Source of the DNA: a virus
Taxonomy: Duplodnaviria; Caudoviricetes
Reading direction: 5' to 3' (one strand)
Length of the DNA stretch: 64,000 bases
IMG/VR virus record: IMGVR_UViG_3300027971_000001
The notes under the pieces: model-generated
What the model was told of the DNA's origin: nothing
The model's input: the letters and a program-made list of their open reading frames with translations, nothing else
Database searches by the model: none
Position numbers and translations under genes: made by a program
Shown here: positions 2,622 to 30,778 of the stretch, in pieces
How the letters are laid out: each line of letters begins with the position of its first letter
Numbering within the stretch: the first letter of the stretch is position 1

Positions 2622-2969
2622 ATGAGTTCAATTCAACCATTCGTAGATCATGTAGGACGTACAATCATAGGCGAAGTTCTTGGCGAGGAGAACGGAAACC
2701 TAAAGGTAAAAAACCCCGCTATTCTGCTGGTTCAGCCGAATCAAGCCACTGGACAACTGAGCATCCAGACGATTCCCTTGTTTTTCAAGGAATTCATCAG
2801 CCCTGCTCTTCGTGAAACAGTTGGCACCTGGCTTTTCCCAAAGGATAAGCTGGTTTTGACCACTGACGTTCAATTAGAAGAGCGTATTATTGAGCAGTAC
2901 AAGCGTATTTTTACGTCTGCTCCTGTTGCTGATTCTAATCCTGAAGTAGTCAAGCTGTTCGAAGACTAA
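2622..2969 (+). CDS. Small beta-rich hypothetical protein directly upstream of uvsX
   Basis: 115 aa ORF; its stop TAA overlaps the uvsX ATG (TAATG), indicating translational coupling. Confidence 0.8.
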   Translation: MSSIQPFVDHVGRTIIGEVLGEENGNLKVKNPAILLVQPNQATGQLSIQTIPLFFKEFISPALRETVGTWLFPKDKLVLTTDVQLEERIIEQYKRIFTSAPVADSNPEVVKLFED

Positions 2970-6046: not shown

Positions 6047-6894
6047 AAAAGACAGTCATTCTTTGTGATTTTGATTTGGATGGAGCAGGATGCTGTCTTG
6101 TAGCCAAATGGTCTTCACCTAATCAACAATATGATATTATACCTACAAATGAAGATGAATTGTCTCAACATTTAAAGAACAGCGATCCCAGAATTCCTTT
6201 GATTGTTTGTGATATGACATTTAATCAAAAACATGTGGATATAGCAGATAGACCGAATGTGCTTTTTGTTCATCATCATGATTTACCTGAACAGATAACT
6301 TCAAAAAATTGTAAGATAATTTCCAAGCAGGAAACATCCTGTACAAAATTATTTGCCGATCTTTTAAAAACACCATTATCGGATGAAAAGAAAAAATTGA
6401 TAGAGTATATTGATGATTACGACAGTTATAATTTAAAATATAAAAAATCTTTATTCCTAAACATGGTATTCTGGTCTTTTACAGGAAACAAATTGGAAAA
6501 ATTTATCACTGCTTTTGAGCAAGGAGATAGAGATTTTAACGATACAGAAAAAAATATGATACGGATTTATGCATCAAAAATGGTTGAAGCCGTTCAAAAT
6601 TCCGAACCACATGTTCTTAAAACAAAAAATTTTAATATAATAATTTTTTATGCTGATTTTGCAATAAATGAACTTTGTGCGGAATTTTGCAAAAAATATG
6701 ATTCTGATGCAGCCATAAGCATAAACAAAAATACACTTTCAGCTTGCATAAGAATCAATCGAAAGAAAGAAACCAATTTCGATTGTGGTGTTTTTGCAAA
6801 AATATTCATGGATGGACATGGATATAAAAACTTTGCTTCTGGTAAAATTATAGATAAATTTGTTGATTTATCAATCAAATTCACTAAGATCTGA
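6043..6894 (+). CDS. DHH-family phosphoesterase-like protein
   Basis: N-terminal CDFDLDGAG, CDMTF, VHHHD, IDDYD and C-terminal GHGYKNFASG (DHHA1-like). ATGA overlap with the helicase. Confidence 0.75.
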   Translation: MKKTVILCDFDLDGAGCCLVAKWSSPNQQYDIIPTNEDELSQHLKNSDPRIPLIVCDMTFNQKHVDIADRPNVLFVHHHDLPEQITSKNCKIISKQETSCTKLFADLLKTPLSDEKKKLIEYIDDYDSYNLKYKKSLFLNMVFWSFTGNKLEKFITAFEQGDRDFNDTEKNMIRIYASKMVEAVQNSEPHVLKTKNFNIIIFYADFAINELCAEFCKKYDSDAAISINKNTLSACIRINRKKETNFDCGVFAKIFMDGHGYKNFASGKIIDKFVDLSIKFTKI

Positions 6895-6895
6895 T

Positions 6896-7168
6896 ATGGA
6901 AAAGACTATTACAGATAAAGAGACCGAATATTACTTTCTTTGTTTCTGTAGTCTAATGTGTATTTTGGCAGAAAAGAAGCTGAATCTTCCCAATGTCTTC
7001 ATAGCATTTTTAAAAAATAAAAATTATCGCCAACTTTTCAAACAAATGTTGAATGTTGAAACTGATCATGAATGTGTTAAAATTTTTATAAATTTCGATC
7101 CAAATTTACACAAATCAAAATACATAACTAAGTTTTTAAATAAAAATAAAAAATTGAACCTTTCGTGA
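6896..7168 (+). CDS. Hypothetical protein (90 aa)
   Basis: ATG 6896 lies 1 nt after the DHH stop; GTGA overlap with the next gene. Confidence 0.7.
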   Translation: MEKTITDKETEYYFLCFCSLMCILAEKKLNLPNVFIAFLKNKNYRQLFKQMLNVETDHECVKIFINFDPNLHKSKYITKFLNKNKKLNLS

Positions 7169-7794
7169 AACACGATTTGTTGGATATTTACAATTCCTTT
7201 ATCAAGGCATATCGGACTGCAAATTCTGCACCATTCCGGTACAGAAAAACATATGAAACTCTTCCACAAGAGGTAAAAAACAAGGTTGAAAGAATCAAGC
7301 TGTTTTTTGATTCTTATGAAATAAATGTGGATAATTTTTTTGAAGCTCCTTATTTTTTATACAAGGACACAAAATATTTTGCGTTTGATTATTATCTTTC
7401 AAGAAAAGCGGTAAAAAGTTACAGTGATTTTGAAAAGGAAATATTAATGATGGGACCAGATCATATCCGCAATCTTGTTAAAATAAAAAATTCTGCATTG
7501 TTTTTAAAGAAGTTTTTAAAAATTGAAGGAATATCTTTTGCAGAATACCTAAACAATAAAAAAGAAAAAGTTCCTTCATTTGTGACACATTTAAAAAATA
7601 GAAATGTTTCAATTTATTTTTTGATGGGTTTAGAAGGTTTTGAAAAAGCTTTTTTTGCTTTTGATTCCAATCTTTTAAAATTCATAATACCAGACATTTA
7701 TGAAAATTATGAATTATATAATAAAAAGTTTCTTACTAGCCAAAATGCCAGAATTTTGGTAAAAAGTATTTTAAATAAAAAGATTCTGAGTTGA
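7165..7794 (+). CDS. Hypothetical helical protein; possible gp59-like helicase loader
   Basis: 209 aa, directly upstream of gp32 as gp59 is in T4. No diagnostic motif recognised. Confidence 0.45.
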   Translation: MKHDLLDIYNSFIKAYRTANSAPFRYRKTYETLPQEVKNKVERIKLFFDSYEINVDNFFEAPYFLYKDTKYFAFDYYLSRKAVKSYSDFEKEILMMGPDHIRNLVKIKNSALFLKKFLKIEGISFAEYLNNKKEKVPSFVTHLKNRNVSIYFLMGLEGFEKAFFAFDSNLLKFIIPDIYENYELYNKKFLTSQNARILVKSILNKKILS

Positions 7795-7817
7795 CATCTT
7801 AATTTGTATGTTAAGAT
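7791..7817 (+). promoter_or_regulatory. Sigma70-like promoter for gp32: TTGACA-15-TAAGAT with TG extension
   Basis: TTGACA 7791-7796, TAAGAT 7812-7817, ATG 6 nt later; inverted repeat ATCTTAA/TTAAGAT. Confidence 0.6.
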
Positions 7818-7823
7818 AAGTTC

Positions 7824-8702
7824 ATGAGTAAATTCACATCATCTATGTTTGAAACGCTGAAGGAATCCCTTACAAAGAAGGGTGAAAATAACAGCGGATT
7901 ATATAAAAATATTCTGAAACTGGAACCAGGAAACACATATAGTGTTCGTTTGATTCCTAATTTGAAGGATGCCAAAAAGACATTCTTTCATCATGTTCAA
8001 CATGGTTGGACAAGTTTCGCAACAGGTCAATATGTCAGTGCCCTTTCCCCGACTACATGGGGCGAAGTTGATCCTATTGGCCAAACTCGTTATAAGCTTC
8101 TTTATAAGAGCAATAATGATGCTGACAAGGTAAAGGGAGCAGAAATCAAGCGTACTGAAAGATGGCTTGCAAATGTTTTGGTTGTTGATGATCCTATTAA
8201 CAAAAGCAACAATGGGAAAGTAATGATTTTGAAGTTTGGCAAACAGCTTCATAAGATCGTTATGGATGCAATGTCCGGTGAAGAAAGTGAAGATTTTGGT
8301 GACAAAATTTTTGATCTTTCTGAAAAAGGTTGCAATCTAAAGATCAAAGTGGAAAAGCAGGGGGATTTCCCGAATTATAGTAGCAGTAGATTCACCTCTC
8401 CAAAAGAAATTGAAGGATTGGATGAAAAGGCTCAAGAAAAAATCTATGAAAGTGGTTTTGACTTGGAAAGTGTTTATCAAAAGAAAACACAAGATGAGCT
8501 TCAGAAACTTTTGGAAGAACATTTCTTCTGTAACGTTTCTGTAACTCCTCCTTCATCTAAAAAGGCGGTTGCTGCTGAAAAGAGCAGCGATCTTGTGGAG
8601 CAGAAAACACAGTTGAAATCCAGCATTGGTGGTAAAAAAGCCGATGATAAAGAGGAAGATTTGATCAAGGATCTTCTTGAAGGTCTGGAAACATCTGAAT
8701 GA
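7824..8702 (+). CDS. gp32: Single-stranded DNA-binding protein
   Basis: YSVRLIP, HHVQHGW, RWLANVLVVDDPINKSNNGKVMILKFGKQL, GCNLKIK, NYSSSRF and an acidic tail. Confidence 0.92.
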   Translation: MSKFTSSMFETLKESLTKKGENNSGLYKNILKLEPGNTYSVRLIPNLKDAKKTFFHHVQHGWTSFATGQYVSALSPTTWGEVDPIGQTRYKLLYKSNNDADKVKGAEIKRTERWLANVLVVDDPINKSNNGKVMILKFGKQLHKIVMDAMSGEESEDFGDKIFDLSEKGCNLKIKVEKQGDFPNYSSSRFTSPKEIEGLDEKAQEKIYESGFDLESVYQKKTQDELQKLLEEHFFCNVSVTPPSSKKAVAAEKSSDLVEQKTQLKSSIGGKKADDKEEDLIKDLLEGLETSE

Positions 8703-9142
8703 GCCACATTCAAGATCCACAAATAGCTAATATTGTTTATAATTTTTTGGGCAATACACTTGCTCAATTAAATGAAATAGACAAGCATAATGTAGGAGGA
8801 AGTAGTTTAAAGGCTTTAAAAACAGATCCTAAGAATGTTTTTAGGGTAAATTCTGATCAAGGCATGAGTTTATTGCCATCAGAACCTTCTAATTTAACTC
8901 CACCTGTAATTCAACAACCACAGGCACCAGTTATTCCTCAAGCTACAGTTCCGGCAGCTCCTGCTGTCAATGTAGTAAATGCAGGATTGAATGTTTCGGC
9001 ACCAGTTCCTGTTCAAGAAACAATTCAACAAGTTATCCATTTTACAAATGGACCCAAACTGATTCCTGAGTTTGATAAGATTATATCAGCTTTAACCAAT
9101 ATTAAGAATATATTAAATGAATCGGTTCACGATAGAAAATAA
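8699..9142 (+). CDS. Hypothetical protein with Pro/Gln/Val-rich central linker
   Basis: 147 aa ORF, ATGA overlap with gp32. Confidence 0.75.
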   Translation: MSHIQDPQIANIVYNFLGNTLAQLNEIDKHNVGGSSLKALKTDPKNVFRVNSDQGMSLLPSEPSNLTPPVIQQPQAPVIPQATVPAAPAVNVVNAGLNVSAPVPVQETIQQVIHFTNGPKLIPEFDKIISALTNIKNILNESVHDRK

Positions 9143-9851
9143 GAACAAATTCTGTCGATATTTTCTTGAACCGCTTCTGAAACTGAATCCGAAGTGTGTT
9201 CTTAAAATAGAACCAGACAAAGTTCAGGCAAAAAGCAGTTATCCGGATGGTTCACTTTTTTTGGAAGCATCATCCAGTATTGATACTGATATTAAAGATC
9301 AGAAAGAACTGGCATTTATTGATCTTTCTAGATTCATTAAGACTCTTGATTTTGTGCAAAAAGATGTGGTCAGTTTTAAACTGGATCAGAATTATCTTTC
9401 ATACAAGGACACAACAAATCATTTTACAATGCAAATGTATGATACCAAGGTTGTGCCAAAACCCCGTTTAAGTTTTGAAAAAATAAATGCCCTTCCTTTT
9501 AATTTGGATATTGTTTTAAATACTGATGTTTTTTTTGAAATAATTAAGGCGAGTGGAATATATCCAGATTTAAATAAATTATATTTTGTTTTTGCAAATA
9601 ATACCCTAAAGATTGAACTTTCCGACAAAACAAAAAATCAGTGTGATGGATTTACCCGTACTATTGAGAACATCGCATCTGTGGATGGTGGTTTGGATTT
9701 TATTCTTCCGCTGGAACCCTTAAGAATTATTTTGGCAAATAAGATGGAAAAATTACAATTTCGCTTCCATAAAGCAAGCAGCCTAGTAAATCTAATATAT
9801 GAAAATGATGGAATCAAAATGTCTTATGTCATACCATGCCTAATCAAATGA
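9117..9851 (+). CDS. gp45: Probable sliding clamp (gp45/PCNA-like)
   Basis: 244 aa with two similar alpha/beta halves typical of clamps (FIDLSRFIKTL; FFEIIKAS...LYFVF; C-terminal MSYVIP). Replication-cluster context. Confidence 0.65.
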   Translation: MNRFTIENKNKFCRYFLEPLLKLNPKCVLKIEPDKVQAKSSYPDGSLFLEASSSIDTDIKDQKELAFIDLSRFIKTLDFVQKDVVSFKLDQNYLSYKDTTNHFTMQMYDTKVVPKPRLSFEKINALPFNLDIVLNTDVFFEIIKASGIYPDLNKLYFVFANNTLKIELSDKTKNQCDGFTRTIENIASVDGGLDFILPLEPLRIILANKMEKLQFRFHKASSLVNLIYENDGIKMSYVIPCLIK

Positions 9852-10261
9852 ATACATCAAACAAAAAAAGAATAAGCAAAAACAAAGTTCGTACACCCAG
9901 TTATTTCATCAAGCGTCTCCGTGACAACGGATTCATTGTATGGAAACTGTTCCAGGAATATGCAAAAACAGATCCTCGTCTTTGGACCATCATTGTTGAT
10001 CCTTCTAACAGCAGTATTTTTATCACCTGTTATCAGAACAAGGATTTCAACGGAGATATCATGTTTGAAATAAATGATGGCGGAATTCGTTTCGTGAAGA
10101 ACTTCAGCCTGAGAACAGACAGCATTGAAAGTGTAATTCTTTTGCTTCTTGAAAAGAACATTGGCAATAATGCTAAAAATAGTAGATTTTTCAAAAAGAT
10201 GGTAAATAGTTCAAGTGAAAAGCCCTCGGAAGAAAAACAACAAGAACTCAACCTCGTCTAA
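9848..10261 (+). CDS. Hypothetical protein
   Basis: ATG 9848 gives an ATGA overlap with the clamp stop (alternative ATG 9836). Confidence 0.75.
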   Translation: MNTSNKKRISKNKVRTPSYFIKRLRDNGFIVWKLFQEYAKTDPRLWTIIVDPSNSSIFITCYQNKDFNGDIMFEINDGGIRFVKNFSLRTDSIESVILLLLEKNIGNNAKNSRFFKKMVNSSSEKPSEEKQQELNLV

Positions 10262-10577
10262 TTCTCTTTCTGCAAAACAGCCGACGAAATCAGTATCGGC
10301 AGAGAATATCGAAGGATTGATCAAAAGCACGTTGCACAATTATCTGCAACAAAAGATTAATTTAAAAACAGAAAGATCTGCTGATCTTACACATCTGGAC
10401 AGCATCATCAGCGAATATTTGGATTGTTTTATTATTATCGGATATGACATGGCAAATAGTCAGGTGAATTTTATCCATGCAAAAGATCAAAAAGATGCGG
10501 ATGCATTAAGCGCAGCAATCAATCGTTTCTTTTATCAGTCACAAAACAATATCAAACCAAAAAACAACGATGATTAA
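10215..10577 (+). CDS. Hypothetical protein
   Basis: 120 aa ORF in operon orientation; start uncertain. Confidence 0.7.
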   Translation: MKSPRKKNNKNSTSSNSLSAKQPTKSVSAENIEGLIKSTLHNYLQQKINLKTERSADLTHLDSIISEYLDCFIIIGYDMANSQVNFIHAKDQKDADALSAAINRFFYQSQNNIKPKNNDD

Positions 10578-11460
10578 TAATGCTCTTATCCTCGGAGGAG
10601 GATTTGTAGGAAAAAATATGGCAGCCAAACTGAAAAGTTTGGGTAATGTAAAAACCGTGGACATGGTTCGCCGGGAATTCTTAGATTATACACAACCAGA
10701 AAAACTCCGGGAATATCTGGAAAAAGGAAAGCCTGATTATTTGATCAATGCAGCAGGTTATACTGGATCACCAAACGTGGAAGGTTGTGAAACCAATTGG
10801 CAGGATTGTTATTTTTGGAATGTGGTTGTTCCTGTTCGTATTGCTAACATATGCAAAGAAATAGAAATCCCTTTTATTAATGTAGGAAGCGGATGCATTT
10901 ACGACAGCCAGGATAAAATTTACAGTGAATATGATATGCCTAATTTTGGAATTTTTAGCAATCGCAGCAGCTTTTACAGCAAAACCAAACATCTTTGTGA
11001 AGAAAAACTGGAAGATTATCCTGTTTACACCTTTCGTATTCGTATTCCTTACAATGACAGTTATGCAAGTAAAAACTATCTTTATAAACTTTTGAAATAT
11101 GACAATTTGATCAGCATGAAAAACAGTATCACCAGTATGAACCTTTTGAGTGAATTTACAGACTTCTTTATCAATTTGAAAGAAAAGCCCCGATATGGTG
11201 TTTATAATGTGGTGAATAATGATAGTATTCGAGGTGAAGACGTTATTCAATTGATGCGAGAAGAAGGGTTAGAAAACAAAAATTGGAAAATTCTAAGCTA
11301 TGAAGAGATGAACTTCAAAGTTAACCGAAGCAATTGCATGCTTTCGCCCATGAAAATTGAAAGTCTGGGTTATACGCCTAAAAATGTTATCGAGGATTTG
11401 AAGGAAAATATCAAAGGATTTAGTCATGCTGTCAAAGCTCTTCAAAAAGATAAGGTTTAA
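10570..11460 (+). CDS. SDR nucleotide-sugar epimerase/reductase, NRS/ER type (RmlD_sub_bind-like; rhamnose synthesis)
   Basis: GGGFVG, INAAGYTGSPNVEGCE (cf. TGxPNVDxCE of plant/giant-virus NRS/ER), GSGCIY, YSKTK and RIRIP. Confidence 0.85.
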   Translation: MINNALILGGGFVGKNMAAKLKSLGNVKTVDMVRREFLDYTQPEKLREYLEKGKPDYLINAAGYTGSPNVEGCETNWQDCYFWNVVVPVRIANICKEIEIPFINVGSGCIYDSQDKIYSEYDMPNFGIFSNRSSFYSKTKHLCEEKLEDYPVYTFRIRIPYNDSYASKNYLYKLLKYDNLISMKNSITSMNLLSEFTDFFINLKEKPRYGVYNVVNNDSIRGEDVIQLMREEGLENKNWKILSYEEMNFKVNRSNCMLSPMKIESLGYTPKNVIEDLKENIKGFSHAVKALQKDKV

Positions 11461-16747: not shown

Positions 16748-16945
16748 ATGGGGAAAGATGATAAAATAGAGGCTGTTGTTACGCAAAAAATCACTGCTGA
16801 TTTTATTCTGAAAATATATGATAATTACAAAAAAGAAAAAAATGTCAAAAAGAAAAAAGAAATGTATGAAAAATTGCAATTATTATCAAAAAACCTTAAT
16901 CAATACTTAGTAGTGCCTAAAGATTATGATAAATATTACAACTAA
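16748..16945 (+). CDS. Hypothetical basic protein (65 aa)
   Basis: Preferred start ATG 16748 (MGKDDK), 5 nt after GTTAAATA. Confidence 0.65.
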   Translation: MGKDDKIEAVVTQKITADFILKIYDNYKKEKNVKKKKEMYEKLQLLSKNLNQYLVVPKDYDKYYN

Positions 16946-17196
16946 TGAATAAAAGACCCAGCAACGATAATGATATTAAAGGAATTTATGAAAGTGATGT
17001 ACGCAATACCGGCATCATGAGTGCGCCGGATGCAAGCAAAATAAATCCAGGAATTAACCGGGATAGTGGAGCTAGCCAGAACATTTACACACCAAATGAC
17101 TATCGGATCGGGGAAAATGAAGAAGGTGAGAAAGAAAGCAAGGTATTGGAAGCGTTGAAAAAAATTAAAGAGATTTTAAATAATCTTGATCTATGA
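16945..17196 (+). CDS. Hypothetical protein (83 aa)
   Basis: TAATG coupling upstream, ATGA coupling to the GH108 gene; GATAAATA at 16928-16935. Confidence 0.7.
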   Translation: MNKRPSNDNDIKGIYESDVRNTGIMSAPDASKINPGINRDSGASQNIYTPNDYRIGENEEGEKESKVLEALKKIKEILNNLDL

Positions 17197-17726
17197 ATGA
17201 AATAAAAATCTCGGAAAATAAAAGTCCGGAATTTGAAACAGCCATGAAGTTTGTGCGGGAAGCAGAAGGTGGTTATTATAACCATCCAAATGATCCTGGC
17301 GGTGAAACAATGTATGGTCTTACCAAACGGGATTATCCTCTTTTTGATATTAAAAATCTGACAAGGGAACAAGCAGATGAAGTATTTTGGCAAGATTATT
17401 GGCTGAAAAGCAATGCTTATCTGATACCTTATCCTGCATATATTAGCTTTTTTGATAGCGTTGTGAACACAGGCAGAACGCAGGCCAATAAATTCCTGCA
17501 ACGTGTGGTGGGTGCTACTGCAGACGGTATTGTTGGACCATATACCCGCAGTCTAATGAGCAAAAAAGATCCTGTTGATGTTGCATATGGCATAATTGAT
17601 CAACGGCAAACATTTTATAATAATTTGGCAGAAAATCGTCCAAAATTATCAGTATTCCTCAAAGGTTGGACCAATCGCAACAAGAATCTGCGCAATTATA
17701 TTCAAAATCTTTTGAAAAACGCTTGA
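17193..17726 (+). CDS. Glycoside hydrolase family 108 muramidase with PG-binding C-terminus (endolysin candidate)
   Basis: EAEGGYYNHPNDPGGETMYGLT (EGG motif), FDSVVNTG, LQRVVG...DGIVGP.T and FLKGWTNR. Confidence 0.92.
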   Translation: MNEIKISENKSPEFETAMKFVREAEGGYYNHPNDPGGETMYGLTKRDYPLFDIKNLTREQADEVFWQDYWLKSNAYLIPYPAYISFFDSVVNTGRTQANKFLQRVVGATADGIVGPYTRSLMSKKDPVDVAYGIIDQRQTFYNNLAENRPKLSVFLKGWTNRNKNLRNYIQNLLKNA

Positions 17727-17771
17727 GTTTTTTTATCAAAAGATAAATATTATTAACAAAACAAATACTAT

Positions 17772-17819
17772 TTTGTAAAGATTACCTTTACAAACTTTTT
17801 GACCTGTTATAATCAGGTC
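17772..17819 (+). promoter_or_regulatory. Two tandem inverted repeats overlapping a sigma70-like promoter TTTACA-15-TATAAT
   Basis: TTTGTAAAG/CTTTACAAA (17772-17794); GACCTG/CAGGTC (17801-17819) with TATAAT in the loop. Confidence 0.55.
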
Positions 17820-17827
17820 TCCTTATT

Positions 17828-18418
17828 ATGAAAAAAACCATCTTAGCCACAGCTTTAGCCCTGACCCTAGTAAACGGGTTTTCAGATATTTCAGTTCCGC
17901 CTAAAAAAGGTTTGCAACCAAATCTAACAAGCACTGAATTCAAAACATTCATGGGTGATGTCAGTAAACTTACCCGAAGCTATAGTAGTGGGGTTTGCGC
18001 CAAGTTCACAACTGCTCTTTTGGACAATCTTCATGAACGCAATGAAAAAGCTTTTCCTCAATTGGATCTTAGGGAAGGTGGGATTGTTAAAGGAAGAGCA
18101 GGTCGGCAAACATATCCAATCACCACATCCAGCAACGAGATAATTTACGCCAAAAACTATAAAACAGTGTTTCAAAGTCGTAAAGATTTTGAAAAAATCA
18201 CTCAAAATGATGTGTTAAACTTGCCTGAAAACACACTTGTTATTGCTGTATACCAACCAAAAAGTTCAGGCAGACCAGGTCACATAGAAGTTATTTTTAA
18301 AAGAAATAACAGGCTATATGCAGCATCAGATAAGCTTGACAAACCCATGTTTTTTTGCAATAAACTCTACAAACAAGTGGACTTCTATTATCCAATAAGA
18401 GAGGATAGGCAATCATGA
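17828..18418 (+). CDS. Signal-peptide protein with NlpC/P60-CHAP-like Cys/His motifs (putative amidase/peptidase)
   Basis: N-terminus MKKTILATALALTLVNG; SSGVCAKFTTAL (Cys) and GRPGHIEVI (His). Confidence 0.6.
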   Translation: MKKTILATALALTLVNGFSDISVPPKKGLQPNLTSTEFKTFMGDVSKLTRSYSSGVCAKFTTALLDNLHERNEKAFPQLDLREGGIVKGRAGRQTYPITTSSNEIIYAKNYKTVFQSRKDFEKITQNDVLNLPENTLVIAVYQPKSSGRPGHIEVIFKRNNRLYAASDKLDKPMFFCNKLYKQVDFYYPIREDRQS

Positions 18419-18900
18419 AAAAAATAGCATGTTTGATGATTATTGCCGGAATATTATATAATATTATTCAGCAAACCAAAGAAAAAGCCATAATCAATCC
18501 AGTTGATAATGTGATTTGTTCTGGAATGACTAAAATGGCTGATGATTTTGTAAAGAAATTGGTTGTTGAAAAGACTGTAAAGGTTCGATTAACAACATAT
18601 TGGGCAAAAGGTGGAGAAACTGATAAGGATAGCGCAAAAAAGCATAGCTATACAGGAGCCACATTAAAAGAAGGGGTGAGTGTTGCAGTCGATCCTCGTC
18701 TAATCCCCTTCTTTAAGCGTTTATACATACCAAATTTAGGGCTTAGAGTGGCTCATGATACAGGAACAGCAGTTAAGGATAAAAAGGCAAGTAAGGGTAA
18801 ATTGCCTGTTATAGACGTATTTTTTGAAAAAAAGAAGGATGCCATGGAATTTGCATACAATGGACCTAAAATAGTCACAGTTAGCATTTATAAATACTAA
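18415..18900 (+). CDS. 3D-domain (MltA-like) protein with N-terminal signal anchor
   Basis: VRLTTYW, VAVDPRLIPF, AHDTGTAVK and VIDVFF supply the three Asp; hydrophobic N-terminus IACLMIIAGILY. Confidence 0.85.
   Translation: MKKIACLMIIAGILYNIIQQTKEKAIINPVDNVICSGMTKMADDFVKKLVVEKTVKVRLTTYWAKGGETDKDSAKKHSYTGATLKEGVSVAVDPRLIPFFKRLYIPNLGLRVAHDTGTAVKDKKASKGKLPVIDVFFEKKKDAMEFAYNGPKIVTVSIYKY
18889..18896 (+). promoter_or_regulatory. T4-type late promoter TATAAATA
   Basis: Exact consensus, 5 nt before GTG 18902. Confidence 0.7.
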
Positions 18901-18901
18901 T

Positions 18902-19423
18902 GTGCGTTTTAACGAACTTATAAATGAAATAATAGGGGATTTACCCCCACCTCCTCCTGCAATAATTCAAAAAGCAGAAGCTGCCATCAAATATAGCGAT
19001 ATAGTAGCGGCTGCTCTTATCGGTGAAGCAGGTGGTGAAGGTGAAAAAGGAATGCAAGCTGTCATGAATGTAATCATGAACAGGGTAAAAGATGGTGATC
19101 CTTTCCGGGGTGCTGTGAATATTGTTTTAAAACCCAAACAGTTTAGTTTTTTTAACAAATACAATGATGGAACAGAAAAAATGGGAGATATTATAAGCAA
19201 AGCCACTAAACATCCTAATTGGGCCAAAGCAAAAGAGCTGGCCCTTGTTGGAATGCGGGGAAAACTACAAGATATTACAGACGGAGCTACACACTATCAC
19301 GTGACAAGCGGACCCAGCAAAGTGTCTCCTAAATGGAGCAATCCTAAATTTGGAGGAAAAAATCCCGAAGCTTCAGCGACCAACACGATTGGCCATCACA
19401 CGTTTTTTACGAACATTAAGTGA
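18902..19423 (+). CDS. SleB/Hydrolase_2-family cell wall hydrolase
   Basis: GEAGGEGEKGMQAVMNVIMNR, KQFSFFN, GATHYH and IGHHTFF; TATAAATA 5 nt upstream. Confidence 0.9.
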   Translation: MRFNELINEIIGDLPPPPPAIIQKAEAAIKYSDIVAAALIGEAGGEGEKGMQAVMNVIMNRVKDGDPFRGAVNIVLKPKQFSFFNKYNDGTEKMGDIISKATKHPNWAKAKELALVGMRGKLQDITDGATHYHVTSGPSKVSPKWSNPKFGGKNPEASATNTIGHHTFFTNIK

Positions 19424-19630
19424 TTTCTTTTTCTTTTTCTTAACAGGCAATTGAAAAACTATTTGAGCACTGCTTGTATTAAAACTATCGCCTTTGAATC
19501 CAGAAGGATGTGTGGCTGTTTTACCCCAATCAATATTTTTTCCATTATATGTTCCAGGAACTCTTGATTGAGGCGCAATGCTAAAATCTTCTGATAGCTT
19601 TTTAACAATACTATCAAAATTCTTTGTCAT
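19373..19630 (-). CDS. Hypothetical protein (85 aa)
   Basis: ATGA overlap with the tail-collar gene; N-terminus MTKNFDSIVKKLSE. Confidence 0.6.
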   Translation of the reverse strand: MTKNFDSIVKKLSEDFSIAPQSRVPGTYNGKNIDWGKTATHPSGFKGDSFNTSSAQIVFQLPVKKKKKKSLNVRKKRVMANRVGR

Positions 19631-21113: not shown

Positions 21114-21616
21114 TGATGAATCTAACATTTAGCGATACAGAAAAGCCAGCCGATCTGGAAAAGTTCCAAAAAATTACATATCCGACTTTCTTTTTCGGTT
21201 TTGCCATAAGAACCATGTATGATCAGAAAAGATTAAAAATTAAAAAAGAATATAACCCCAATTATATTGTTCACAAATATGGCAACAAAGCAGATGAAAT
21301 CATGTTTCTTTATGGAATGATTGCTCCTGTATCGAATGATGTGATGCCTTATATACTGCCATTACGGGCCAATCCTAACGTGAATCATGAGCAATATGAA
21401 GCAGTACTAAGACCTTTGGAAGTAGAATGCAGTGATTGTTATCTATTCTTAGCCAAGAATCTTTATCCTATCAATTCATTTTATACCCATAGATTCTTTA
21501 CAAAATCAAATTTTAAAAATATAAACAACTATTCAGAATTGCTTGATAGGGATCCAGAACTTCCGTTGCATCACACCATATCCCCGTTCCACCTGTTTTT
21601 ATTGACTAACTATTAA
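21113..21616 (+). CDS. Hypothetical protein
   Basis: Preferred start ATG 21113 (MMNLTF) behind the promoter above. Confidence 0.75.
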   Translation: MMNLTFSDTEKPADLEKFQKITYPTFFFGFAIRTMYDQKRLKIKKEYNPNYIVHKYGNKADEIMFLYGMIAPVSNDVMPYILPLRANPNVNHEQYEAVLRPLEVECSDCYLFLAKNLYPINSFYTHRFFTKSNFKNINNYSELLDRDPELPLHHTISPFHLFLLTNY

Positions 21617-23937
21617 CCACCAACAATCGGATCATTTGGTGGATTGCTGTCCTTGATGTTATAGGCATTGTTCTGCGGTGCAGCCACAACCCTGTCCGTA
21701 TTATTGCAAGCTTGAGCCACGTTACGAACATTCTTATTTTCTGGAAGCAGATTAAGAGGTATATTTTTAAATAAATGACTGTGACTATATGTAAACAAGC
21801 AATTTTCATCTGAAATATTGTTACAAGGAGTTTTACTCCAAACAATACCCCAACCATTACAAATACTTGCTCCAGGTTGCACATAACCAATAATTTTAGC
21901 ATCAATCGTATTAGTTTGACCATACACAAAACTCTTTTCAGTTTCCTGAATTTCTACAGGAGCAGTGATATGGTTGACTGTGAGTTCTCCTTCAATATGG
22001 GCACCTCCTCCTACTACTAAATTGCGACTAACACCCAAACTAGAATCTACCATTACCTGTTCATAATTACGTTGACGCAAAACCAGAATGTCACTGGTTA
22101 TAACTGTGCGGTTACCTCCATCAATATTCAATTCATATTGAGCACCTATATTCACTTGTTGTCCGGCCATGGTGGTTATGGTTCCACTCATTTCTATAGG
22201 TCCTAGGGTTTTTACGCTAATCCCTCCTGCACCCACTTGTAATGTATAACGATTACATGCATTAACTGTATAATTTCCACCAGGAAGATCATCAACATGT
22301 ACAGGTTCAATCAAAGGACTGGATTTTTGATTTTCAAATACGCCCAATTCACCCACTTGAACTTTATAATTATATATTTTTCCTTCTGTGTCGATACGAA
22401 TTGAACCAAAATCATTCATGACTTGACCAATCATATCAAATTTGTGTTTGGGTATTTCTGTAACCAAACTACCCCCAGTACCCAAACTTTCTTCAATTTT
22501 ACCCAATTCGACTATTTTTTCTTTATAAAGCTGTTCGAGTTTCTTTTTTTCTGGATTTTCCTCCCATTTACCATCCATGCTGCTTGGACTTAATTTTTGT
22601 CCTTTACAAACAGGACATTGATTAGGAGCAGGGAATGCAATAAGTTGACCATCTTGTTGTTTTCCTTTTGGATCAACTGTTTGATATTGATCTACACCAT
22701 TACTTCTGAATGTTACAACGGGAATAACTACTTGATTAAATTTGTTATTAACTGCGTAATATTTTCTATCTTTTGAACAAACAGGACAAGGTCCAGGGTT
22801 TCCTTTTTGTTTTTGATTGGTAGAACTTATCCTATTTGGATCACCGTCTTTTTTCTTGGTACGATCAATTTCAAACAATTGTTTAAGATCTGCTATAGGA
22901 TCCATCTGAGTCTTCCATTGTTGCTGATGTTGAGGATCCTGATTTCCTATTTTAAAATAATAATTACCTTTGACCACGATATCTAAATCACCCCCGACGT
23001 AAAGACTATTATTACCTTTTACAGTTGTGAATTTGTCGGCCAGAACCAATTGTTGATCATTTTTTACAGATAATCTACTTGTTGTTGCATTATTAAATTC
23101 CAAAAATGATCCTGAATAGTGTGTAAATTTTAAAACCTCTTTCAAATCTGTGTTTACAAATTCAATTGTTCCGCCTTTTTGAGACATGACCATTTTGTTT
23201 CTGTAAGTTTCAGCATCACTTTGCTGGACTTTCAATTCTGAATTATTTTTGTCCAGATTTTCATAAGCACCCGGATAATCTTCTGCCACTCCATAATCAT
23301 CCTGATATATTCCTTGCCAAGCTGCTTGACCAAAACTTACAGCCCAATAAACAGGACGCATGGGATTTCCATCATAAAAGAATACCCAAACATGTGCTCC
23401 CACATTAGGAACACTGAATAAACCTTTAGCCCTGTTACTGTAACAGCTGGGAACATATCCGTAAGAATTTGGATTTACGTGGGCAACATTATTGGCTGGT
23501 GCAGAATTGAATGCATCGCTTAATTTTACCGCTTTTCTTTCCAATACATTTCCTGGTTTTTCACCAATACCATCTGTATTTTGACTGAATTCTGTTGTTT
23601 GAAAATCCTTTTGAGGTTTGCAAGTATCAATAAAGCTACTGTCGCTTATCGAACCAAATTTTTCTGTTGCATTATATCTTCCGCTTGCTGCTCCTCCAAA
23701 CAAAGGCATGGCACAGTCCGACCAAGGAAGAATCTTTTTAAGATCGTCCAAAATATCATTTAAACTGCTGTTAAGATTTTGACCTATGAAATTAAATTCT
23801 TTATCTACTTTTACTTCATTCCATTTATTGTAAACAGTGGAAGTAACGTGAGGAACAAATATCTTGAGTCTTCCTCTTTGTTCTGGGTCATTGTTTTGTA
23901 CAACTATACCTAAATATTGACCATCATATCTTTTCAT
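21613..23937 (-). CDS. gp5: Baseplate central spike, gp5/VgrG-like, lacking a lysozyme domain
   Basis: OB-fold GIVVQNNDPEQRGRLKIFVP...VPNVGAHVWVFF.DGN; HYSGSFLE and V-x-G beta-helix repeats; C-terminal HSH. Confidence 0.85.
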   Translation of the reverse strand: MKRYDGQYLGIVVQNNDPEQRGRLKIFVPHVTSTVYNKWNEVKVDKEFNFIGQNLNSSLNDILDDLKKILPWSDCAMPLFGGAASGRYNATEKFGSISDSSFIDTCKPQKDFQTTEFSQNTDGIGEKPGNVLERKAVKLSDAFNSAPANNVAHVNPNSYGYVPSCYSNRAKGLFSVPNVGAHVWVFFYDGNPMRPVYWAVSFGQAAWQGIYQDDYGVAEDYPGAYENLDKNNSELKVQQSDAETYRNKMVMSQKGGTIEFVNTDLKEVLKFTHYSGSFLEFNNATTSRLSVKNDQQLVLADKFTTVKGNNSLYVGGDLDIVVKGNYYFKIGNQDPQHQQQWKTQMDPIADLKQLFEIDRTKKKDGDPNRISSTNQKQKGNPGPCPVCSKDRKYYAVNNKFNQVVIPVVTFRSNGVDQYQTVDPKGKQQDGQLIAFPAPNQCPVCKGQKLSPSSMDGKWEENPEKKKLEQLYKEKIVELGKIEESLGTGGSLVTEIPKHKFDMIGQVMNDFGSIRIDTEGKIYNYKVQVGELGVFENQKSSPLIEPVHVDDLPGGNYTVNACNRYTLQVGAGGISVKTLGPIEMSGTITTMAGQQVNIGAQYELNIDGGNRTVITSDILVLRQRNYEQVMVDSSLGVSRNLVVGGGAHIEGELTVNHITAPVEIQETEKSFVYGQTNTIDAKIIGYVQPGASICNGWGIVWSKTPCNNISDENCLFTYSHSHLFKNIPLNLLPENKNVRNVAQACNNTDRVVAAPQNNAYNIKDSNPPNDPIVGG

Positions 23938-23940
23938 ATA

Positions 23941-25731
23941 TTATGTATTTCCTGCTGCTTGTAGTAATTGTTGTGCGGATGGATTCTTAAACTGTTTGTA
24001 TCCGGATGGATAATATGCCACTTGCTTTCTTCCTTTTACAATTTCAACATTTTGTGCATAAACACCACTTTTAGGAGGTTGTACAGTTGCTGATTGTGTT
24101 TTTCCTCCTGCAAGAACATTTTTTTCAAAATTCAATCTTGATTGCTCCGTATCAAAATATATATCAACTGTTGCTGTTTTTACCTCTTGTGGTTCTTTAT
24201 TTTCATCTTTTAAACGAATAACGCTTCGCACACTATTAGTATTTCGTCTATTTTTACGAAATACGCCCTGACCTTCCCGATCCATATCCCGTCCACTTGT
24301 ATTTCCTTCAATTGTTGTAAAACTACCATCAGAATTAACTGTTTCAACGATTCCAGTATGGCTATAATTATAAGTTATAATATCTCCGGGTTGAAGTGGT
24401 TTTTCACCAGGCCGAAATATTTCAGCATTACCATTTCTTGCAAAATCTTCCATTCCGTATGCCCTCATGGTTGCTGGTGCAGGTGTGTTGGTTCCTGCAG
24501 TTGCTTGCTGTGTAACTGCACTAACAAAACCTGCACACCATGGTTGACCTTGTGAACCTCCTCCTGCAGAGAAAAATGGATTTAATTGTGACCCTGTATT
24601 ACTGCTTGCATTTTCTGTAACACCCAAATAACTTTGTGCAGCAGTCACAGTTCGAGCACCAACGGAGCTTCCATTCTTAAAGTCAGGATTACTTGGATAA
24701 TATGATTGTGATCCGTCTCCTTTTACAATTCCCCTTTGCCTTGCTGCTGTTTGTTTCACAACATCTGAACCGGTATCCATTGCCACACGAACTCCAATTG
24801 CCGGATTGTCAAAAACAATTTTACTTCCATATGGAATGATTGAAGGATCCACAGCACAGCTTTGACCTTCAACAAGATTTTTTTCTCCGGTTGAACTATC
24901 CTTTTTGGCAGTCCATTCATCTCCTCCTTTTCCTATGGCTTCTTTTGCACCGTATGTTGTTACCACTGCATTAATACGAAAATCATTAGGAGAAACGGCA
25001 TTTGGAACAACAGGTCCTGCTTTTACTTGTGTATTATCTCCTCCTGTTTTACTGGATGCATAACTTTGTGCATTTTGTTTGGTCTGATTGCTGATATTAG
25101 CCGCAGCTATAGATTCACTTCTTTGACGGAATTTAGTAAATGATTGTGTGTCTACTGACAAATCCCTTATTGTTTTTGGGGAAAGGTTTGAAGGAACACT
25201 GGTTTGTATGGAATTCAACAATGAACTTATGTTGGAAACATTCTGTATTCCTTGCAGATTGTTTGTGACCTGGCTTTTTGCAAAATTAAAATTGTTTGTG
25301 TTTATATTGGCAAATTGAGAAAATGTATTGGAAAAAATACTTTGAATATCAACTTCACCTCCGGCAAAATTAGGAATAGGGAAATTGTTTCCTAGATAAG
25401 ATTGGACAATACCCTGTAATTGATTGGTTATGTCCAATCCTTGTGTTACATTTTGTATGGTTTGATCTAATATTTGAGGTGATGGCAATTGTGGAAGAAA
25501 GTCAGTTATAGGAAGATAGTCTTTAATATTTCCAAATTGCATTCCAAAATTGCTCATATTGGAAAATTGAGGTGGCAATTGAACTGAACCGAATATTTGT
25601 TCTGGATTTAATTGGGAAAGTTGCTGCGAAATATCATCAAAAGATGGAACAGATATGATCTTTTTTAGCTGTTTAAGATTCATTTCCGGAGCTAATTTTG
25701 TTAATAATGCCGGTGGAATATCATCTGCCAT
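23941..25731 (-). CDS. Virion-associated lysin: Q/N/S-rich N-terminus, then a 3D domain interrupted by a CHAP domain
   Basis: VVTTYG, CAVDPSIIPYGSKI, AMDTG; then QPWCAGFVS, PGDIITYNYSHTGIVE, IEGNTS; then VDIYFD. Immediately upstream of gp5. Confidence 0.85.
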   Translation of the reverse strand: MADDIPPALLTKLAPEMNLKQLKKIISVPSFDDISQQLSQLNPEQIFGSVQLPPQFSNMSNFGMQFGNIKDYLPITDFLPQLPSPQILDQTIQNVTQGLDITNQLQGIVQSYLGNNFPIPNFAGGEVDIQSIFSNTFSQFANINTNNFNFAKSQVTNNLQGIQNVSNISSLLNSIQTSVPSNLSPKTIRDLSVDTQSFTKFRQRSESIAAANISNQTKQNAQSYASSKTGGDNTQVKAGPVVPNAVSPNDFRINAVVTTYGAKEAIGKGGDEWTAKKDSSTGEKNLVEGQSCAVDPSIIPYGSKIVFDNPAIGVRVAMDTGSDVVKQTAARQRGIVKGDGSQSYYPSNPDFKNGSSVGARTVTAAQSYLGVTENASSNTGSQLNPFFSAGGGSQGQPWCAGFVSAVTQQATAGTNTPAPATMRAYGMEDFARNGNAEIFRPGEKPLQPGDIITYNYSHTGIVETVNSDGSFTTIEGNTSGRDMDREGQGVFRKNRRNTNSVRSVIRLKDENKEPQEVKTATVDIYFDTEQSRLNFEKNVLAGGKTQSATVQPPKSGVYAQNVEIVKGRKQVAYYPSGYKQFKNPSAQQLLQAAGNT

Positions 25732-26802: not shown

Positions 26803-27015
26803 TTAATATAATCCTATTTTAGTTTTTACAACATCCCAAAGAAAAGTAGCTACTGCAGAAACAGTTATAGCACCACCAATAATTTTAGTTTTAAATTTTT
26901 CAACAGTTGTTAAACGATCATGGTGATCATCAATTTTATTGATAATATGATCAATTTTTGTTTCCATGCGGACAACCCGTTCTCGCACATCCATGATATC
27001 GTCTTGATAAGGCAT
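26803..27015 (-). CDS. XhlA-like small membrane protein (coiled coil plus C-terminal TM); holin candidate
   Basis: ERVVRMETKIDHI...RLTTVEK followed by hydrophobic IIGGAITVSAVATFLW. Confidence 0.6.
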   Translation of the reverse strand: MPYQDDIMDVRERVVRMETKIDHIINKIDDHHDRLTTVEKFKTKIIGGAITVSAVATFLWDVVKTKIGLY

Positions 27016-27447: not shown

Positions 27448-28941
27448 TTAGAAGTAGACGCTCTGTGTGGCAGGTGTGAACGGCTGACCCAGACCAACGA
27501 CAATAATGACGTGGTAGTACAGGTTAGCCCCGAAGATATTATCCACAACGCCGTAACGAGTCATCAATCCAACGCGAGGCGAGAAGTCGTTAGGACCAAT
27601 CGTTCTCTGGACGAGGACTGGGATGTACGGGCAATAGATGATACCTGTGTCGTAATACTCCGGACCCTTGTACCCGAGTAGTGCATACTCGAGGCGGGTG
27701 CTACGCTGCGGGTTAGTGAGAGTTCCCGGATATGCTCCGAGGTTCTCAGCCTGCGCGTCTGTGCGTGTATCACGATACACATTAAACCGACCACCGAGAT
27801 TTCCAACCTTGGAAACGCCAACAGGTTGAGTGTTGACATTGCCTTGGACGGGAACCCACTGGAATTCAGGAAGCATTTCCAATATGGCGCAAACGCGAGG
27901 TGTTGCAACAATGAAGTTGGCAGCACCACGACGGTTACGAACCGCAATGCGGTTAGCTTCGATGATTAGTCTCTGGTAGAAGTCACGATTACGTTCAACT
28001 AGCCAGCGACCATCAGCGGAAGCGGGAGACCATACGGAATATCCTGATCCGAAGCCAGCATTGAGGGCAACCTGAATCATACGAATGATCATCTCACGGT
28101 CAATTTCTGCCTGTAGCTCATAGCTCATAGCATTTGTCAACTCGGTGTCGATGTCGATACCATTCATATTCTTCAAGTCTTGTTCAAGCTCTACGGACCA
28201 GCGAGCAGCAAGCCTACGGGTTCCTGCTTCGACTGCAGTTTTCTCGAAAGAAACTTCAATCTGAGGAATCTTACCGGTAAGTTCGAAGTTACCCAGGATC
28301 TGAGCAACACCCTGATCGGTGCCGAGCATTGTGAATTGATCATAATACGGCTGCGAAGGGGATGCGCCAGAGAGCTGAGAAGACGAAGTACCAGTATAAC
28401 GGGTGTCAAGGAGTTGATATCCAAGTTCAGCACCGTTAGAAGGATTGGCAGGTGTTATGGCGGCATTTGCGTTAGTTCCGCTACCGTCAACGCCAGAATT
28501 ACCCAATTGTTTATTGAGGTACTTATAGCGAAGAGCGAAAGCAAGACCGACGGGACCACTCATAGGTTGAACACCTACTATCTCGTTGGTGATTAGTTCG
28601 GGGAATGTACGACGAATCATCGGGATCAGAATCTTGGGCAGACGTGCATCTCCCTTAGCATAGTCGTCACCAGCGGTGATCTTGCCAGGGGGATTGAACG
28701 AAGCTCCAATAGATGTACCTGAACCGAAAACACCACCGCTAGCGGCAGTGTTATCTTCATTAACCATGCACCATTGCTCTTGGTTTTCCAAAAGCATGGC
28801 GGTGTTGAGACGTGTGTGATCGTCTTCGATAGCCCGGACAGAATCCGAGGTATAATCGAGGACGGGTGCCCACTTCTCTAGAAGGGTTTTAGCGCGACTC
28901 TGATTGATGTAACTCGTGGGAGGAGCGATACGCTTACTCAT
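27448..28941 (-). CDS. gp23: Major capsid protein
   Basis: LLEKWAPVL, ILIPMIRRTFPELITNEIVGVQPMSGPVGLAFALRY, RRLAARWSVELEQDLK and YCPYIP; SD AAGGAG upstream. Confidence 0.98.
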   Translation of the reverse strand: MSKRIAPPTSYINQSRAKTLLEKWAPVLDYTSDSVRAIEDDHTRLNTAMLLENQEQWCMVNEDNTAASGGVFGSGTSIGASFNPPGKITAGDDYAKGDARLPKILIPMIRRTFPELITNEIVGVQPMSGPVGLAFALRYKYLNKQLGNSGVDGSGTNANAAITPANPSNGAELGYQLLDTRYTGTSSSQLSGASPSQPYYDQFTMLGTDQGVAQILGNFELTGKIPQIEVSFEKTAVEAGTRRLAARWSVELEQDLKNMNGIDIDTELTNAMSYELQAEIDREMIIRMIQVALNAGFGSGYSVWSPASADGRWLVERNRDFYQRLIIEANRIAVRNRRGAANFIVATPRVCAILEMLPEFQWVPVQGNVNTQPVGVSKVGNLGGRFNVYRDTRTDAQAENLGAYPGTLTNPQRSTRLEYALLGYKGPEYYDTGIIYCPYIPVLVQRTIGPNDFSPRVGLMTRYGVVDNIFGANLYYHVIIVVGLGQPFTPATQSVYF

Positions 28942-30097: not shown

Positions 30098-30778
30098 TTA
30101 GCTCTTTGCACTCAATTTTCTAAAGAAAAGAACAACTTGTTCTTTCAAAAATGCTTCAACATCAGTACGAGGAAGGTTGAAAAGGGCAGATGTAAAGCTG
30201 TCATATATCTCTTCATAATGACCACTTTCTTTCAAAACAAACTGTTTACTTTCCAAAATACCATCAACAAAAGCTTTGGGGAACGACGGATCAGCAACAC
30301 AATCAATTGCAACCAAACGAAGATCGGAAACCTTGTTTATTCCGTTTGATCCTTCGCTAAGTTTTCCTAGAGCACGGCTGCTCATTCCTACCTTTACTCC
30401 GTCCTGTATCAAACTCTTAACAATCATTCCCATAGGAGTGCTGAGAACTTTGCTTTTACCGTAAAAAACATTTCCATCCTGACGAAGTTCAGTAACCATG
30501 TGACAAACACGTTCCAAATTAACTTCAGGAGTTTGAGGATGATTCAATTCACCCATGCTACGGTGATTCTTGATCATTTCATTTGTGTAACGACCAACTT
30601 CTTTGGTCATTTCTTCAAGATTGTAGATTCGACGATTACGATTGGCTTGTTCTGCCATCATGTAAGGACCTTTGATATAAAGAGTGGCCGGTTGGTTGGG
30701 ATTTTTTTCTTCCAACACGTATTCGAAATCATCATTAGATGCGGGACGTTCTACAATAAGTTTTAAACCATCATTCAT
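30098..30778 (-). CDS. gp21: Prohead protease
   Basis: YIKGPYMMAEQANRNRRIY, GELNHP, VCHMVTEL, GVKVGMSSRALG and DCVADPS. Confidence 0.96.
   Translation of the reverse strand: MNDGLKLIVERPASNDDFEYVLEEKNPNQPATLYIKGPYMMAEQANRNRRIYNLEEMTKEVGRYTNEMIKNHRSMGELNHPQTPEVNLERVCHMVTELRQDGNVFYGKSKVLSTPMGMIVKSLIQDGVKVGMSSRALGKLSEGSNGINKVSDLRLVAIDCVADPSFPKAFVDGILESKQFVLKESGHYEEIYDSFTSALFNLPRTDVEAFLKEQVVLFFRKLSAKS

Follow-up and report, generated by a model that had tools for sequence, protein, structure and literature searches.

Why would a phage encode four cell-wall hydrolases of unrelated families side by side? Phage wall hydrolases usually fill one of two roles, as endolysins in exit or as tail lysins in entry, and the question is raised by a stretch of 64,000 nucleotides (nt) from IMG/VR virus record IMGVR_UViG_3300027971_000001, referred to here as the window, whose source is an uncultured T4-like phage, a freshwater relative of phage T4. 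On the plus strand it encodes, in this order, a GH108 endolysin (g1), an exported Cys/His protein (g2), a membrane-anchored enzyme with a 3D domain (g3) and a SleB-like hydrolase (g4). An initial annotation, made from the letters of the window, had proposed four unrelated wall-hydrolase families for the genes starting at 17193, 17828, 18415 and 18902, and these assignments hold, through Pfam for g1, g3 and g4 and through the predicted fold for g2. The reading that we favour, with about even confidence, is that the block consists of three wall-enzyme units that differ in their N-terminal address, and is no redundant lysis cassette.

The argument is built on domain identities, predicted folds, conserved catalytic residues, N-terminal signals, gene coupling, conservation and a family of leader peptides, all obtained from the window and from a comparison set of metagenomic relatives (loci L001–L016). 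The division of labour first suggested for the four enzymes is partly supported by this comparison, the clearest difference between the units being one of addressing rather than of timing.

An orphan protein with an export signal and an NlpC/P60-CHAP-type predicted fold

No match to g2 was found in Pfam or PHROG. A word-based search of 5.8 billion proteins returned 23 relatives, all metagenomic and 55–95% identical, and a profile search of 1.84 billion cluster representatives recovered g2's own cluster only. There was no tblastn match in isolate phages at E up to 1, and no sequence match in the PDB. By inspection, the N-terminus (MKK, 12 hydrophobic residues, then NGFS) has the n-h-c layout of a typical cleavable signal, which is kept in all homologues. 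Cys57 and His152 are invariant in 16 homologues; Asp168 is also invariant, and is a candidate third residue.

An AlphaFold2 model of g2 built from 16 homologues (mean pLDDT 77.8, pTM 0.76) was compared exhaustively with 48,161 PDB representatives by VIA-align. The best match is the type VI amidase Tae3 (Z 10.1, root-mean-square deviation (rmsd) 3.0 Å, 114 of 118 residues), followed by Tse1 (Z 9.0) and MepS (Z 8.0), below which some 40 NlpC/P60 or CHAP wall hydrolases, phage endolysins among them, form an almost unbroken list. Foldseek returned NlpC/P60, Peptidase C51/CHAP and Tox-PL entries from the AlphaFold DB clusters, with E down to 7e-6, and weak matches from the PDB (E 4e-3). The look-alikes proposed by a protein language model were Tae4, CHAP, NLPC_P60 and amidase clusters, with scores at lead level. 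In the model, Cys57 is the first residue of helix 57–71 and His152 the first residue of strand 152–159; these are the positions of a papain-type dyad, from which we infer the geometry of the active site. At the level of fold, g2 is thus modelled as an NlpC/P60-type enzyme, in agreement with the NlpC-CHAP-like character that the initial annotation had ascribed to it.

As for the type VI amidase effectors Tae3 and Tse1 and for housekeeping NlpC/P60 endopeptidases such as MepS, the predicted g2 fold is compact and papain-like (Z 8–10), with the candidate catalytic Cys at a helix N-terminus, the candidate His on a strand and the periplasm as predicted destination, but sequence similarity to these proteins is not detectable. 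The routes also differ. Tae3 and Tse1 arrive by injection, whereas g2 would enter the periplasm of the producing, infected cell by its Sec signal, and unlike the type VI effectors it has no evident immunity protein.

A predicted membrane-anchored 3D enzyme coupled to g2

The g3 protein matches the 3D family PF06725 (E 8e-8, 32.8 bits against a cut-off of 23.8). Its N-terminus, again by inspection, has MKK followed by 15 strongly hydrophobic residues and no small-residue cleavage site, and a hydrophobic N-terminal signal is kept in all homologues. The model (pLDDT 75.8) shows an N-terminal helix (residues 2–23), a second helix and a beta domain, the best match of which is Bacillus subtilis YuiC (Z 10.8, rmsd 2.4 Å, 31% identity); MltA-type lytic transglycosylases also align, at Z 8.3–9.3. 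The beta domain is a double-psi beta-barrel in which Asp93, Asp115 and Asp134 are invariant among 18 sequences. Barrel, three conserved Asp residues and the Pfam 3D assignment are common to g3, to the stationary-phase survival proteins YuiC and YocH, and to MltA. Unlike these, g3 is encoded by a phage and is coupled to a papain-like enzyme; it carries a membrane anchor at its N-terminus, whereas MltA is a lipoprotein of the outer membrane.

The ATG of g3 overlaps the stop codon of g2 (ATGA), and the two genes are, on this layout, translationally coupled; 1 nt separates g3 from g4. The signal peptide of g2, the signal anchor of g3 and the ATGA overlap had all been described in the initial annotation, and all three persist on comparison. 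Two other identities considered for these proteins were rejected. As a signal-arrest-release (SAR) endolysin, g3 is too hydrophobic, since the segment IACLMIIAGILYNII has a mean Kyte-Doolittle value of ~2.5 with small residues at 4 of its 15 positions, and the relatives are equally rich in Ile, Leu and Phe. A spanin pair, thought of because g2 and g3 follow an endolysin gene, does not fit, as both proteins have folded enzyme domains and g2 has no lipobox. Complex prediction with g3 (28–161) and g2 (26–196) gave a score of 0.00, which is evidence neither way.

The same two domain types recur on the opposite strand, in a 596-residue protein adjoining the gp5-like baseplate hub (start 23941; Table 1). 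Here a 3D domain, 43% identical to g3, is split between its second and third Asp segments by a CHAP domain, and the protein is likely a tail-associated entry lysin. With its 3D and CHAP domains, the window has six wall-acting domains, the number given in the initial annotation. In the diffocin baseplate chain 8v3w_H, residues 328–460 match g3 and residues 463–581 match g2, so that a contractile-tail lysin, too, joins these two domain types in one chain. The two architectures are Rosetta-stone hints of 3D and papain-like domains working together. In these tail lysins a glycan-cutting 3D domain and a peptide-cutting NlpC/P60 or CHAP domain reside on one virion protein, whereas in g2–g3 the two predicted activities are placed on separate, export-tagged polypeptides. 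Elsewhere on the minus strand, a 628-residue protein with two hydrophobic segments (55495–57381) may be the tape-measure protein (gp29-like), in which case the 23941 protein would be a separate hub-associated lysin.

A head-loading-type leader on the SleB-like hydrolase

The catalytic domain of g4 matches PF07486 over profile positions 1–100 of 100 (E 2e-13, 51.1 bits against a cut-off of 27). The motif LIGEAGGEG (G-E-A-x-G-E), the Glu of which we take to be catalytic, is kept in nearly all homologues. Ahead of the domain, nearly all of 83 homologues have a leader of the form M-[RK]-[FY]-x-x-[LF]-[IV]-x-x-[IL]-L-E/A, where the slash marks the putative cut site, and then D-[LVI]-PPPPP. A subgroup of 162 residues has the leader without the poly-proline; another, of 213–218 residues, has a longer and different N-terminus, yet retains [LIVF]-K-E/A directly ahead of the poly-proline. 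In L009, the most divergent locus, the module MRFNDLINRILE with DLPPPPPP heads a GH24 phage lysozyme and not a SleB domain. Leaders of this type also begin unrelated late proteins (MISFKNIKSLLSE, MKFEQILKNKYSLLSE/APP, MGLFSNIFSKILNE and MTQNFDNLVDSLINE) in two relatives, L014, which is 97–99% identical and encodes them just upstream of the region matching the window, and the more distant L015. Within the window, an 85-residue protein encoded on the opposite strand starts in the same way, and the 3' end of its gene overlaps g4 by 51 nt.

L/I-x-E is the motif after which the T4 prohead protease gp21 cleaves, and loading of proteins into the T4 head takes no more than the first ten residues of IPIII (PMC9026906). 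In analogy to the T4 capsid-targeting sequence (CTS) of IPI–III and Alt, the leader on g4 and on the unrelated late proteins is a short amphipathic N-terminal peptide ending in (L/I)-x-Glu, a gp21-type protease is encoded in the same genome, and the g4-type cargo is exchangeable (SleB or GH24). Unlike in the T4 system, the predicted cargo is a peptidoglycan hydrolase with a poly-proline linker. Because of the conserved leader, the domain swap in L009 and the gp21-type protease in the window, g4 is probably a head-loaded, protease-trimmed wall hydrolase. No natural T4-type head cargo of the wall-hydrolase kind was found described in our literature search. The initial annotation had reserved the SleB-like enzyme for the virion; a conserved T4-type head-loading leader agrees with a virion role, but it points to the head and not to the tail, for which the 23941 protein is the obvious lysin. 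A programmed frameshift that would fuse g3 to g4 was considered and rejected, since a slippery site is lacking and every relative retains an initiation codon, ATG or GTG, at this same position.

A probable cytoplasmic GH108 endolysin

The first gene of the block has matches to PF05838 (E 1.4e-18, 67.7 bits against a cut-off of 21.2), to PG_binding_3 in its C-terminal part (E 4.7e-10, 40 bits against a cut-off of 24.6) and to the endolysin family phrog_315 (E 7e-45). Its translation contains REAEGGYYNH, kept in all relatives, with the E-G-G-Y motif in which the catalytic Glu of GH108 presumably lies. The N-terminus is polar, with no hydrophobic stretch, signal peptide or conserved leader. An I-S-E sequence was considered as a leader cut site and rejected, as it is not conserved among relatives. 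The lack of any targeting signal fits the role in lysis originally given to this enzyme, that of a cytoplasmic endolysin.

The ATG of g1 overlaps the stop codon of an upstream gene for 83 residues (ATGA). g1 has no late box of its own, and the coupling links it to this box-bearing gene, as had been described. In four relatives (L001, L002, L006 and L007) the GH108 N-terminus is longer and basic, and an open reading frame (ORF) for 197 residues with no family match, at 8795–9388 in L001, is placed between the 83-residue gene and GH108.

No holin or spanin was recognised within ~5 kb of the four genes, in line with the initial annotation; farther off, a weak candidate is the 70-residue protein at 26803–27015. 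It has a weak match to the holin family phrog_689 (E 0.0015) and to XhlA-type "hemolysin" families, and from its sequence is a possible holin-like partner for the endolysin. A search for holin T (PF11031) in three partial relatives gave no match, and as control genomes were equally silent, this is uninformative.

Late boxes and the leader of the export-tagged pair

The sequence ATAAATA occurs 33 times on the two strands of the window. At 17 of the 33 sites it lies 1–11 nt before a same-strand start codon; all 17 precede genes of the window's late/structural part, and none precedes the replication genes at 2622–11460. Examples of such start-proximal sites are at 13269, 20794, 25748, 29907, 32947, 57394 and 63425. 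If these are gp55-type late promoters, the late mRNAs would be leaderless or nearly so.

The box of g4, TATAAATA, is placed in the last codons of g3. As a bare 8-mer it is not enriched (13 copies against 8.4 expected), while its 7-mer core is strongly tied to start codons, and the spacing of 5 nt to the GTG of g4 is typical. The box looks functional from sequence comparison, because the box is missing from g3 homologues without a downstream g4, which end in ...VAVY, and because in L016, where the end of g3 differs, a TAAATA variant again stands 5 nt before g4. A box of its own had been noted for the SleB-like gene, and this observation is confirmed.

The arrangement before g2 is different. The 101-nt spacer between g1 and g2 is the sole sizeable gap in the gene run, and is better conserved than the flanking coding sequence. 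It contains a distal late box and two hairpins (Table 1), and g2 lacks the start-proximal late box that is present before 15 other late genes. The two-hairpin fold is much more stable than that of shuffled sequence, its z being −4.0 for the window and −3.1 for both L005 and L008; for L009 and L016 the gain is weak (z −1.5 to −1.9). Hairpin 2 shows compensatory changes in its arms, where GACCTG/CAGGTC is replaced by GACCC/GGGTC and GATCTG/CAGATC in relatives. A sigma70-like promoter candidate, TTTACA-15 nt-TGTTATAAT (17787–17813), overlaps these hairpins, with its −10-like part in the loop of the second. The hexamer TGNTATAAT is at chance level in the window, with 6 copies for 6.4 expected; it has decayed to TACTAT in L008 and is missing from L009 and L016, in which the hairpins persist more weakly. 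Selection thus looks to act on the pairing rather than on the −10-like hexamer. A similar layout is seen at 7789–7823, where TTGACA-15-TGtTAAGAT, with an inverted repeat around the −10, stands 6 nt before a gp32-like gene; it could equally be a translational operator hairpin.

Of the three regulatory regimes posited at the outset for the block, three distinct upstream architectures can be recognised, but a sigma70 promoter before g2 is not established, given the chance frequency of TGNTATAAT and its place in a hairpin loop. The same points, together with the conserved late box 78 nt upstream, go against the proposal that g2 and g3 are made before the late phase. For this pair we put late-only expression somewhat above an even chance and early or dual expression somewhat below it. 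In the single RNA run found (X20), a 439-nt contig with ~94% identity fell on g2, besides chance fragments; DNA carry-over is possible, and contig-level data of this kind do not bear on timing, 5' ends or co-transcription.

Conservation and history of the block

Conservation of the four-gene order had been named as a check on the module, and the order is kept in seven distinct related contigs, with g2 identities of 63–97%. The g2–g3 pair stays together in the divergent L009. The order in L009 (1875–2462) and L016 (4421–5639) is PRTase, (g2), 3D, leader-bearing hydrolase, where L016 and the P0164 contig have PRTase, a signal-peptide 3D protein and a leader-bearing g4, and neither g2 nor g1. The signal peptide of the L016 3D protein is of the cleavable type, like that of g2. 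Judged from these gene orders, g3–g4 is the oldest unit, into which g2 was inserted in a sub-clade, with GH108 added in a narrower one.

The g3 family, with 615 matches, is far wider than that of g2. In L010 and L011, where g3 is 52–55% identical, an anchored 3D gene occurs on its own; its neighbours are numerous small ORFs on the same strand, and MazG and an Ogg-like gene lie close by. The 3D gene follows directly behind TTGACA-N17-TAnnnT and a Shine-Dalgarno sequence. Promoters of this type are enriched in that clade (4 against 0.84 expected), and ATAAATA is at chance level. From these sequence features the L010/L011 gene looks to be in an early region, so that early genes can include one for an anchored 3D enzyme, but the solo genes may be paralogues rather than orthologues of g3.

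Genomic context

The block belongs to a gene run on the plus strand (16748–19423) almost without gaps. Besides the genes in Table 1, the window encodes a baseplate wedge protein, UvsX, a DnaB-like helicase and DNA polymerase. Its GC content is ~34%, and the identity of its capsid protein to cyanomyovirus counterparts is ~33%. Nearly identical DNA is contained in many freshwater metagenomes; in isolate phages, the sole match of a DNA search is 68 nt long, within the GH108 gene.

Table 1. Coordinates of the wall-enzyme genes, their upstream elements and other features of the window
Feature	Position	Strand	Remarks
g1, GH108 + PG_binding_3 endolysin	17193..17726	+	Pfam, PHROG
g2, exported Cys/His protein, NlpC/P60-CHAP-type predicted fold	17828..18418	+	signal peptide ~residues 1-19
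g3, 3D / YuiC-MltA-like lytic transglycosylase domain	18415..18900	+	signal anchor, residues 4-18
g4, SleB/Hydrolase_2 domain (45-169)	18902..19423	+	GTG start; leader (residues 1-9, ending I-N-E); DLPPPPP linker (13-19)
ATAAATA late box	16929..16935	+	9 nt 5' of the 83-residue gene
83-residue gene, conserved in relatives	16945..17196	+	no Pfam or PHROG match
Distal ATAAATA box	17743..17749	+	78 nt before g2 ATG; consensus, conserved in nine of nine loci
Hairpin 1	17772..17794	+	9-bp A/U-rich stem, then T-run
Hairpin 2 (GACCTG/CAGGTC)	17801..17819	+	loop holds TGTTATAAT (17805-17813)
TATAAATA late box	18889..18896	+	in last codons of g3 (Y-K-Y-stop), 5 nt before g4 start
85-residue conserved gene	19373..19630	-	starts MTKNFDSIVKKLSE (same leader type as g4); no family match
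gp5-like baseplate hub	21613..23937	-	no lysozyme domain detected
596-residue 3D + CHAP protein	23941..25731	-	adjoins the gp5-like hub
70-residue protein	26803..27015	-	helical N-terminal part, one C-terminal membrane helix; late box 14 nt upstream
Gp23-type major capsid protein	27448-28941		
gp21-type prohead protease	30098..30778	-	Peptidase_S77, PF03420, E 9e-29

Discussion

If the three units are addressed as their N-termini suggest, g1 would be made late, via its coupling to the late-box gene, and would stay in the cytoplasm until a holin opens the membrane, as a classical endolysin. g2 and g3, made by coupled translation, would both leave the cytoplasm through Sec. In the periplasm g2 would be soluble and, as an amidase or endopeptidase of the NlpC/P60 type, would cleave stem peptides or cross-links; g3 would remain tethered to the inner membrane and cleave glycan strands as a YuiC/MltA-type lytic transglycosylase. 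Together they could attack the sacculus from the periplasmic side, holin-free. Their structured 5' leader, with its distal late box and two hairpins, has no counterpart at the other late genes; its probable effect is to limit the synthesis of the pair or to set its timing. The leader of g4 would load the SleB-type hydrolase into the prohead, like a T4 capsid-targeting sequence, and be removed by the gp21-type protease, so that g4 travels in the capsid to the next host. The Sec crossing proposed for g2 and g3 is similar to that of the Sec-exported or SAR endolysins, such as Lyz of phage P1 and Lys44 of fOg44, which is likewise holin-free. Unlike in those phages, the export-tagged enzymes here coexist with a signal-less endolysin, and hence are not the sole lysis enzyme.

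A rival explanation is one multi-enzyme late cassette, with late synthesis and a lytic purpose for every one of the four enzymes. In this case g1 and g4 would wait for the holin, g2 and g3 would be delivered by Sec, build up in the periplasm and act when the membrane is de-energised, like signal-peptide or SAR endolysins, and the N-terminus of g4 would be a mere linker or regulatory helix. The four genes are on the same strand inside the late/structural region, with late-box genes on both sides, and the distal box before g2 has the consensus sequence and is found at all loci. The nearest relatives of the g4 catalytic domain are annotated endolysins from phages of Pseudomonas, Agrobacterium and Roseobacter. 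Sec-exported and SAR endolysins form an established class (PMC7143992), and a phage genome with several endolysin ORFs is on record (PMC11180984). A mere linker, however, would not be expected to keep leader and Glu cut site over 83 homologues and through a swap of the catalytic domain. The anchor of g3, rich in Ile and Leu, is unlike SAR domains, and a homologous anchored 3D gene is found in an early-type region of another clade. We consider a single lysis cassette rather unlikely.

Somewhat less probable still is a difference in timing, with g2–g3 expressed before the late phase from a host sigma70 promoter (TTTACA-15-TGTTATAAT) and g1 and g4 late, the purpose being remodelling of the wall of the living host, for superinfection exclusion, cell enlargement, division block or peptidoglycan salvage. 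The missing start-proximal box of g2 agrees with such early expression, as do the −35/−10-like elements, kept with a TGn extension in 7 of 8 relatives, and the promoter-preceded 3D gene of L010 and L011. The TGNTATAAT count, the loss of the hexamer from relatives that retain the co-varying hairpins, the conserved late box and the possible paralogy of the solo 3D genes all argue the other way. Early secretion of a Tae-like amidase should, moreover, endanger the infected cell.

A similar difficulty weighs on the three-address reading itself, since lysis would be expected from a freely secreted Tae-like amidase, and some unseen control would be required. Several other points also count against differential addressing. 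g2 has no sequence-level link to NlpC/P60, CHAP or related Pfam families, and its catalytic residues are candidates placed by conservation and by the model. The leader of g4 is shortened in the window, with I-I-G where relatives have L-L-E/A, although I-N-E (residues 7–9) remains, and (L/I)-x-E is a short motif. A 639-residue protein of the baseplate/fibre region (38878–40797, minus strand) starts with MQFNRIYNE, which resembles the g4 leader, so either proteins other than head cargo can also carry this N-terminal pattern or the resemblance is due to chance. T4 internal proteins reach the cytoplasm, where there is no substrate for a wall hydrolase, and an entry role of g4 therefore needs release in the periplasm. 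Enzymatic activity, export, cleavage, head loading and timing are all predicted, from sequence, models or analogy to T4.

Each catalytic family in the block was known already, as were Sec-exported endolysins, tail lysins combining 3D with papain-like domains, and the head-loading leaders of T4. New here are the four families in conserved tandem within a T4-like lineage, the orphan sequence family with a Tae3/Tse1-like predicted fold, the special structured leader of the exported pair and, as far as the sequences tell, the wall hydrolase with an exchangeable catalytic domain behind a head-loading-type leader. Neither the four-gene block nor any CTS-tagged wall hydrolase turned up in the literature search, and the four-gene module is not described in the pelagimyophage metagenome paper PMC7029224.

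The near-leaderless late mRNAs suggested by the ATAAATA boxes bear on the annotation of these phages, and an orphan exported amidase that resembles type VI wall toxins in fold would be a new family for the enzyme repertoire. For the biology of these widespread uncultured T4-like lake phages, the block suggests two wall-hydrolase roles beyond exit and entry, as head cargo and as a periplasmic pair. The pair, if correctly predicted, would have a Sec-exported amidase and a transglycosylase act on the wall of a still-living host. As a tentative generalisation, wall degradation in T4-like freshwater phages may be split over three compartments, including a capsid-loaded SleB or GH24 hydrolase delivered at the next infection. 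If true, a capsid-delivered wall enzyme would be a new class of head cargo and extend what the T4 head is known to carry, with the 83 homologues and their exchangeable catalytic domains as the test case.

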